Positions 42,545 through 43,911 of a DNA stretch of 64,000 nucleotides are shown piece by piece. The notes beneath the pieces are model-generated. The model saw only the letters and a program-made list of their open reading frames with translations, was not told where the DNA came from and did not search any database. Each line of letters opens with the position of its first letter. Within the stretch, counting starts at the first letter, position 1. The DNA is taken from positions 22,568,001 through 22,632,000 of the forward strand of contig OZ024753.1 in the NCBI GenBank assembly GCA_964016885.1, given 5' to 3'. Position numbers and translations under genes: made by a program. Source of the stretch: Eledone cirrhosa. Its lineage: Eukaryota.

Positions 42545-43911
42545 TAAGTATGTATACGTACATACATATATGTATACAGACGTACAGTAGTATTTATATA
42601 TATACATACATGCACACACATATACGTATGGATTTACCGAACATTTATTATAATGCTCGGTGTGTTTCTAAACAAATATCCCGAATTAAGGCGTACAGTA
42701 TTTAGCAACCATCGTTGCGCTTTTTGTTCAACACTGACAAAGGAACGATGTACTAATTTCAAGCTTATTAACTATCGTCAACACCGTATACCTTTCTGCC
42801 AGATGATTGAACGTCTGAAAGTATATACTTTCCTTATTCATATTAACGGTGAGCAGCCTAATTTGCATATCGAGTGAGTTAATCGGCCGGGCACACCGAA
42901 TACGATAAACGGAAAAAATGAAACGAAATTTCATTTCTCACTCTTAGTACGGCTGTTACTTAAATATAAGTACGTATACGTACATACATATATGTATACA
43001 GACGTACAGTAGTATGTATATATAAACATACATGCACACATATATATATATGTACGTATGGATTCATCGAACATTTATTATAATGCTCGGTTTGTTTGTA
43101 AACAAACATCCCTAATTAAGCCGTACAGTGTTTAGCAACCATCGTTGCCCTTTTTTTCAACACTGACAAAGGAACGATGTACTAGTTACAAGCTTATTAG
43201 CTATCGTCAGCACCGTATACCTTCCTGCCAGATGATTGAACGTCTGAAAGTATATACTTTCCTTATGCATATTAACGGCTAAGCAGCCTAATTTGCATAT
43301 CGAGTGAGTTAATCGGCCGGGCGCACCGTTTTCGTACATATATATATGTGTGCATGTATGTATATATATATACATACTACTGCACGTCTGTATACATATA
43401 TGTATGTACGTATACATACTTATATTTAAGTAACAGCCGTACTAAGAGTGAAAAATGAAATTTCGTTTCATTTTTTCCATTTAGCGTTTCGGTGCGCCCG
43501 GCCGATTAACTCACTCGATATGCAAATTAGGCTCTCAACCGTTAGTATGCATAAGGAAAGTATATACTTTCAGACGTTCGATTATCTGGCAGGAAGGTAT
43601 ACGGTGCTGACGATAGCTAATAAGCTTGAAACTAGTACATCGTTGCTCTTTCAGTGTTGAACAAAAGGGCAACGATGGTTGCTAAACACTGTACGGCTTA
43701 ACTCGGGATGTTTGTTTACAAACAAACCGAGCATTATAATAAATGTTCGGTGAATCCATACGTACCTATATATATATGTGTGCATGTATGTATATATATA
43801 CATACTACTGTACTTCTGTATACATATATGTATGTACGTATACATACTTATATTTAAGTAACAGCCGTACTAAGAGTGAGAAATGAAATTTCGTTTCATT
43901 TTTTCCATTTA
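42545..43911. mobile_element. Retrozyme-like 430-bp family: about 1.8 tandem units followed by about 1.3 inverted units
   Basis: Hammerheads at 42745-42787 (-) and 43175-43217 (-), 430 bp apart, and at 43601-43643 (+, intact). Confidence 0.85.

Follow-up and report, generated by a model that had tools for sequence, protein, structure and literature searches.

Which enzyme moves the retrozymes of animals? The consulted parts of a 2020 review describe these repeats as showing no motif that identifies a helper enzyme (PMC7761336), and the available sections of a 2026 preprint argue for an origin from Penelope-like elements (PLEs) by co-occurrence and homology and leave the mechanism open (10.64898/2026.07.22.740005). 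The locus at 42545–43911 of the window, the whole 64,000-base stretch analysed here, touches on this question. It is an ageing, decayed copy of a very abundant, non-coding repeat of ~430 bases. What is new here is its layout: two inverted arms that both run into (TA)n, one stopping at each of a pair of fixed sites separated by 61 nt. Two fixed ends, a one-sided tail and a (TA)n target together make up the insertion footprint of PLEs, which provides a mechanistic argument for the helper and names the exact RNA sites.

A sequence-only reading had described a high-copy, ORF-less repeat of ~430 bp at four loci, with one hammerhead per unit, and all four loci exist where it placed them. Family DNA accounts for 3,992 of the 64,000 bases (~6%) of this AT-rich window, which is dense in (TA)n tracts and retroelement fragments. 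The unit has no long ORF. From cut site to cut site it measures 429 nt at 42545–43911, as the proposed period would have it, and 398 nt at 13.6–14.3 kb, where the unit carries a deletion; six long copies are 87–95% identical to one another. The predicted monomer at 42751–43179 (−) gives a 429-nt circle with 35% GC and a longest ATG-initiated ORF of 68 aa. The predicted circular fold is strong (z = −4.8 against 40 shuffles), with the TA-rich hairpin contributing part of the score. A TA/TG-rich self-complementary segment occupies 43766–43850 (+), directly upstream of the tail-less end. Upstream of the hammerhead lies a perfect 16-bp palindrome (43556–43571), which one of the window copies has partly lost and which is changed in a subfamily seen in reads. 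The octamer ATGCAAAT (43520–43527, +), which we had taken to resemble the newt satellite promoter, a parallel that found no confirmation, occurs in 7 unit copies and 12 more times elsewhere in the window, possibly by chance; on these counts we rejected it as a promoter.

The family is present as five insertions comprising nine arms. The insertion under study (42546–43911), with (TA)n on both sides, consists of a tail-less arm on the minus strand (42546–43333; 788 nt, 1.84 units), which runs through CATACTT into (TA)n at 42446–42545, and a tail-bearing arm on the plus strand (43334–43911; 578 nt, 1.35 units), which runs through CCATTTA into (TA)8. The tail is the 61-nt stretch between the fixed ends (43851–43911, +) and contains a ~12-bp hairpin. 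The stretch at 6984–8021 had been taken for a single locus; the repeat is indeed there, but as two insertions with (TA)n between them. The first (6983–7099, (TA)n on each side) is a minimal two-armed insertion whose 52-nt tail arm (−) and 65-nt tail-less arm (+) span circle positions 224–274 and 151–213, a layout that looks as if one RNA primed both arms. The second (7176–8022) joins a 405-nt tail-less arm (−), with a G5A hammerhead at 7434, to a 442-nt tail arm (+), whose hammerhead at 7682 has a helix I mismatch. At 57490–58369, a 546-nt tail-less arm (−) bearing an intact hammerhead with a GUU triplet (57765) meets a 334-nt tail arm (+) whose hammerhead (58097) has mismatches adjoining the core. 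The fifth insertion (13613–14345, +) is one-armed and 1.6 units long, and ends ~7 nt before CCATTTA, followed by (TA)n. Its left end is a short inverted hammerhead piece that adjoins a LINE fragment instead of (TA)n. The claim that the repeat sits in or beside (AT)n holds for all nine arm ends but not for this left end. The LINE copy in question (12139–13617) is cut off exactly where the repeat copy starts; it and another at 38308–41651 are 90–92% alike, with an RVT_1 match (E 6e-23) and a weak zf-RVT match.

Two smaller fragments had also been assigned to the family. One, near 58880–58935, is a true piece of the hammerhead, 49 bp long (58880–58928, −; 88%, E 5e-13). It is flanked by two copies of a SINE-like repeat that point in opposite directions (58767–59279, inverted); the join shows a short microhomology immediately 3' of the cut site and may reflect a template switch. 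A ~200-bp repeat in the window looks like an octopus SINE, one of the signs, along with the Hydra-1_Obim motifs described below, that this animal DNA is probably from an octopus. The other fragment, at 54990–55070, holds no hammerhead and has only a borderline likeness to the tail, which 1 of 1,000 shuffles equalled.

Read in the sense of the ribozyme, every arm end (9/9) adjoins (TA)n, and the ends fall at two sites. Four of the five tail arms stop exactly at CCATTTA and one about 7 nt earlier, while the four tail-less arms all stop at CATACTT or a 1–5 nt variant. Counted from the cleavage site, these two fixed ends correspond to positions 213 and 274 of the circle, a distance of 61 nt. Four of the five insertions pair one tail arm with one tail-less arm, head to head. 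Inner arm ends vary between positions 124 and 406, and one arm opens with a composite piece. Arm length ranges from 0.12 to 1.84 units, with the longest array in the window below two units, and none of the nine arms starts or stops at the ribozyme cut site. Because the arms cross the cut site and reach 1.8 units, their template would have been a circle or an uncut multimer. The sequence-only reading contained neither the two fixed ends nor the one-sided tail.

PLE insertions, as described in the available sections of PMC8557442, have an inverted truncated copy, a one-sided tail and a (TA)n bias. Those of PMC11167929 report a PLE protein that cleaves an AT-rich target on both strands, extends each of them and begins reverse transcription at two internal RNA sites bounding the tail. 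The same combination of an inverted truncated arm with a tail on one side and an AT-rich target is found in four of our five insertions, and this layout suggests that a Penelope-type enzyme did the copying, possibly from an RNA circle. The window also contains an internal control outside the family, a PLE-like element at 34209–38158 (−; Pfam RVT_1, E 3e-15). It carries minimal hammerheads at 34365 (−) and 37964 (+), a 41-nt one-sided tail, (TA)n at both ends, and nested inverted arms (34216–34659/37685–38113, 95%; 34740–35118/37226–37604, 99.5%). This RT-bearing element shares its insertion footprint with the ~430-bp repeat, and two further window elements show one-sided extensions. Decayed PLE fragments, most with inverted ends, lie at 9532–10401, 19318–22275, 26557–28866, 28862–32508 and 55484–56080. 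Compared by eye with parts of the PMC8557442 supplement, their RT/endonuclease motifs resemble the Hydra clade, and several ORF fragments share motifs with Hydra-1_Obim. The Hydra-like fragments and the RT-bearing element, all beside (TA)n, show that helper candidates exist.

A degenerate hammerhead pattern of 30 letters, allowing up to three mismatches, matched nine times in the window and never in 100 shuffles, which upholds the proposal of one hammerhead per unit. The motif has type I geometry, with a 6-bp helix I, a 4-bp helix II and a palindromic ACUAGU helix III. Its core is intact in six of the nine and mutated in three; about three core hits is the neutral-decay expectation that we estimate from 55 private changes over the copies. 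Where "intact" denotes the whole core plus the 6-bp helix I, the 4-bp helix II and the palindromic helix III, two of nine motifs remain, 43607 (+) and 57765 (−). The former spans 43586–43654, with its core from 43607 and a predicted cut after 43637 (GUA); a bulged extension prolongs helix I, helix II is a U.U plus four base pairs, and helix III is the palindromic ACUAGU. On the opposite arm, the hammerhead at 43163–43231 (−; motif 43210) has the core mutation GUAA for GAAA, and that at 42734–42802 (−; motif 42781) has C3U, helix changes and a non-palindromic loop III. The 43-nt hammerhead string given earlier proved to be a consensus with no exact match in the window, the copies at 42545–43911 having ACGGTG in helix I. 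Neither of the two tandem same-strand pairs in the window contains two intact hammerheads, which makes monomer release from the 42545–43911 locus unlikely and goes against the ~430-nt monomer predicted earlier, as far as the window copies are concerned.

The closing pair G10.1–C11.1, highly conserved among hammerheads and not universal, is absent from all nine motifs, with U.U in six, U-A in one and C.A in two. Helix I continues beyond a UAU bulge into two further helices, where 96–98% of cells are paired across eight copies. Among these eight window copies no pair shows two-sided covariation, and the score equals that of shuffles. One helix I pair varies, occurring as A-U and G.U in the window and as U.G in reads (5826/10742 and 6233/12331 for the minus mate; 419/7940 and 514/8268 for the plus mate). 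Both changes have matching frequencies within each mate class, and the U.G variant also occurs in run X4. The U.G change is one subfamily event, its phase being taken from the matching frequencies. Read variants inside the hammerhead, among the rows listed, affect N7, loop 2 and a single pair of helix I, a lack of core variants that is not significant by itself. In minimum-energy folds the start of the core pairs with loop III and the hammerhead does not form. Rfam returned no match at the gathering threshold over the whole window, and its hammerhead models matched neither at gathering nor, over 42500–43950, at E up to 10. We dismissed 100 sub-threshold Rfam matches at 42500–43950, mostly miRNA models on the TA/TG-rich segment, as composition effects.

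A 6-bp helix I, a 4-bp helix II and a short palindromic helix III characterise the "canonical" metazoan type in the consulted sections of PMC4209133, with action as a dimer expected. The traits of minimal PLE hammerheads (an extra base after A9, a long helix II, a short helix I) are absent from the family; by its architecture the hammerhead of the ~430-bp repeat belongs to the canonical metazoan type and differs from the minimal type of PLEs. An axolotl retrozyme likewise has a U.U at the base of helix II, and part of PMC7229834 reports that its cleavage is weak in the monomer and improves in the dimer. The available preprint sections give "two complete HHRs" as the rule for an active retrozyme copy and report cleavage for one of nine predicted dimers (10.64898/2026.07.22.740005).

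Copies resemble their neighbours. Mean identity is 93.3% within a locus and 88.7% between loci, and 6 of 7,560 relabellings reach the within-locus mean. Each locus has 1–5 private states, and seven of nine copies have their nearest relative at their own locus. The exception is the pair of arms at 57.5–58.4 kb, which at 87.1% identity lie under the between-locus mean. This within-locus similarity would be equally compatible with copying from one circle, with a source array of homogeneous units and with local conversion. Scars of A-to-I editing were rejected, with three A>G among the 55 private changes and no excess.

Public DNA runs bear out the high copy number. Twenty of 24 runs contain some of 42545–43911, and three contain at least half of its words; these three derive from one sample, which may be the source of the window. 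Eight of the 24 were compared in detail, over the stretch without the repeat-rich 43753–43911. Run X1 yielded 7,734 matching contigs with a summed depth of 0.09–2.0 million over covered bins, which we do not take as copy number; single X1 contigs, among those listed, have depths of 5–24. RAD run X22 has 47,663 matching reads among 12,467,656, and run X9, which bears a second organism label, has 3,867 matching contigs, mostly less than 95% alike. Such matches suggest at least tens of thousands of copies, a figure that is not a count. Joints between opposite strands occur often in X22 and X9. In X9 and X6, loose ends pass from the tail into TA-rich letters. We discarded X4, X5, X6 and X7 as hosts, since they gave only 19, 10, 63 and 12 matching contigs and may be trace DNA. 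Run X18, presumed to be RNA, gave no matching contig, which we do not read as evidence on expression. X22 read ends at 43459–43463, 43528 and 43701 were likewise discarded as element ends; they lie at AATT sites and are read as library cut sites. Metagenome contigs gave no match to the hammerhead pattern or the tail pattern, and viral contigs gave none.

Does the unit stand on its own, or is it a piece of something larger? At 43470–43500 (+) the end of the tail continues directly with the 5' segment of the unit itself, and such head-to-tail junctions recur at 13911 (+), 7551 (−), 42912 (−) and 57896 (−). These five junctions and the four two-armed insertions substantiate the head-to-tail and inverted arrangement described earlier. 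Each junction leads from the tail through a ~155-nt segment of the unit itself to the same hammerhead, with no ORF on the way. The junction also recurs as a loose-end consensus in 108 contigs of run X1 and is bridged by X9 contigs. Since each of the five leads out of the unit's end and back into its beginning, the unit is not just a truncated PLE end, and the refuting case raised earlier, a bare terminus of an autonomous PLE, finds no support in the junctions. Were the unit nothing more than an autonomous PLE's 3' pLTR, with 5'-truncated insertions as its copies, this would suit the PLE footprint, the truncation usual in PLE insertions and the many PLE fragments of the window. Such an origin is improbable in light of the five ORF-less junctions and of the loose ends listed from eight runs, which share no upstream coding sequence. 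Neither the unit nor its junctions hold an RT/GIY-YIG ORF, no part of the unit matches the ends of other PLE fragments in the window, and the window contains no autonomous partner sharing tail or pLTR. Four unit motifs were sought in the PMC8557442 supplement, of which 584,131 characters were covered; three have no occurrence, and the fourth, of nine letters, has two, inside unrelated PLE sequences. Spread at the DNA level, whether as a MITE-like or fold-back element or by satellite amplification and recombination in (TA)n, would make the hammerhead incidental. Inverted arms fit this account, local duplication or conversion could give the within-locus similarity, and target duplications are unreadable inside (TA)n. 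We consider it very unlikely all the same, given variable inner ends, unequal arms and an asymmetric tail, which recur in the RT-bearing 34209–38158 and are unlike fixed terminal inverted repeats.

Encoding no protein, carrying a type I hammerhead motif and lying in (TA)n as inverted arms, the repeat is likely a retrozyme, and we hold it highly probable that it is both a retrozyme and PLE-mobilised. Its class, already known, is that of the animal non-LTR retrozymes, non-autonomous PLE derivatives, to which the family adds a further member; the class and the probable PLE mobilisation put forward earlier fit the unit's own head-to-tail junction and hammerhead. With 429 nt, 35% GC and no long ORF it agrees in size, GC and coding content with the retrozyme range (~150–450 bp, GC below 50%, no LTR, PBS or PPT). 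The boldest reading, with a probability of about 0.35, is that the insertions record the writing of a retrozyme: a PLE enzyme would cut both (TA)n strands and copy a hammerhead-made circle from two fixed sites simultaneously, passing across the cut site once ligated. In the explanation that we favour, source arrays located elsewhere and still bearing intact hammerheads would be transcribed, hammerheads paired through the palindromic helix III would excise a monomer, and a host ligase would close it into a circle. A Penelope-like RT/endonuclease acting in trans on the ~430-nt RNA would nick both (TA)n strands, and each nicked 3' end would prime reverse transcription at one of the two internal sites on either side of the tail. 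Synthesis of each cDNA would stop at a variable point and the pair would be joined head to head, and the window copies would have decayed after insertion. For the full chain of cutting, ligation and two-site PLE priming on a circle the odds are about even, and the circular template is mildly favoured.

The main rival dispenses with the circle. A non-autonomous PLE derivative would be copied from uncut linear multimeric or read-through RNA, with the hammerhead an inherited passenger or late-acting, and tandems would arise like the partial tandems of PLEs. If source arrays were homogeneous, this would account for all DNA features equally well. In the available sections of PMC11167929, mutation of the hammerhead did not abolish insertion in vitro, for which uncut RNA served as the main substrate, and the single cleaving dimer among nine in the preprint (10.64898/2026.07.22.740005) points the same way, as do arms that stay under two units, never start or stop at the cut site and, at 57.5–58.4 kb, differ by 13%. 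What weighs against it is that the extended helix I and the canonical geometry are kept in subfamilies and under the second organism label, and that the listed read variants spare the core for N7, loop 2 and one helix I pair, a point that lacks significance taken alone. We regard copying from uncut RNA as possible but less likely than the circle. Should the circle indeed be copied from two fixed sites, as the boldest reading has it, it would be the missing direct link from retrozyme circles to PLE enzymes and would offer a two-site, 430-nt substrate for in vitro work.

Several known systems share parts of this architecture. Metazoan non-LTR retrozymes (coral; Mytilus, 350–390 bp; axolotl, 330/350 bp), as far as described in the available sections of PMC7229834 and 10.64898/2026.07.22.740005, likewise have AT-rich units, non-coding and a few hundred bases long, each of which contains one type I hammerhead and occurs in head-to-tail copies; the predicted circle folds strongly, the host genome also contains PLEs and, in HHR_Amex2, a U.U lies at the base of helix II. 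Unlike theirs, the arrays here stay below two units, with no readable TSD and no locus with two intact tandem hammerheads, and the insertions are mostly inverted, two-armed and set in (TA)n with a one-sided tail, a layout absent from those sections. For the ~430-bp family, expression and circles are predictions. EN+ PLEs and their pLTRs, in the consulted parts of PMC8557442, PMC4209133 and PMC11167929, share partial tandems, an inverted 5'-truncated copy, a tail at one end only, a (TA)n target and a hammerhead in the terminal repeat. In contrast to them, the family has no RT/GIY-YIG ORF, a tail of 61 nt as opposed to 30–40, and a canonical, not minimal, hammerhead; we found no sequence match between the unit and a PLE pLTR. 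Non-autonomous Chlamys PLEs such as MRC1, as partly described in PMC8557442, are also non-coding, with pLTRs and head-to-tail insertions, but they are green-algal, mostly without canonical hammerheads, and their 3' ends resemble those of autonomous partners. The repeats newt satellite 2 and Schistosoma Sm-alpha, in the available text of PMC6155905, share a type I hammerhead with a weak helix III, expected dimer action and an internally looped helix I.

In the literature we found no cephalopod retrozyme. The O. vulgaris repeat annotation (PMC13282606) has no occurrence of "ribozyme" in the accessible portions of its text and supplement; its repeat library, Repbase and Dfam may contain the family under another name. 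Nothing in the literature that we found links retrozymes to twin priming.

Other sequences surround the family. Directly right of 43911 lies a duplication with a 690-bp period (43926–44421/44616–45108, 94%), the second copy of which ends in (TA)n; hammerheads proposed within it (44186, 44876) were not accepted, having C3U in the core and weak helices. Hammerhead-like motifs of unrelated families occur at 54689 (−), 26268 (+), 26615 (−) and 56936–57041/57182–57287. That at 54689, in which an 8-bp helix I is combined with a helix III formed by the palindrome AUGCGCAU, belongs to a small two-armed element with a ~90-nt one-sided extension. A 588-aa frame at 51789–53555 (−) combines STPR repeats with a PIF1 helicase (E 3e-51) and is probably a Helitron fragment, and a tandem array with a 29-bp period extends over ~1.4 kb at 46322–47745. 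A second short non-coding family, largely palindromic and ~125 bp long, also lies beside (TA)n, at 6745–6935, 60345–60537 and 63115–63203.
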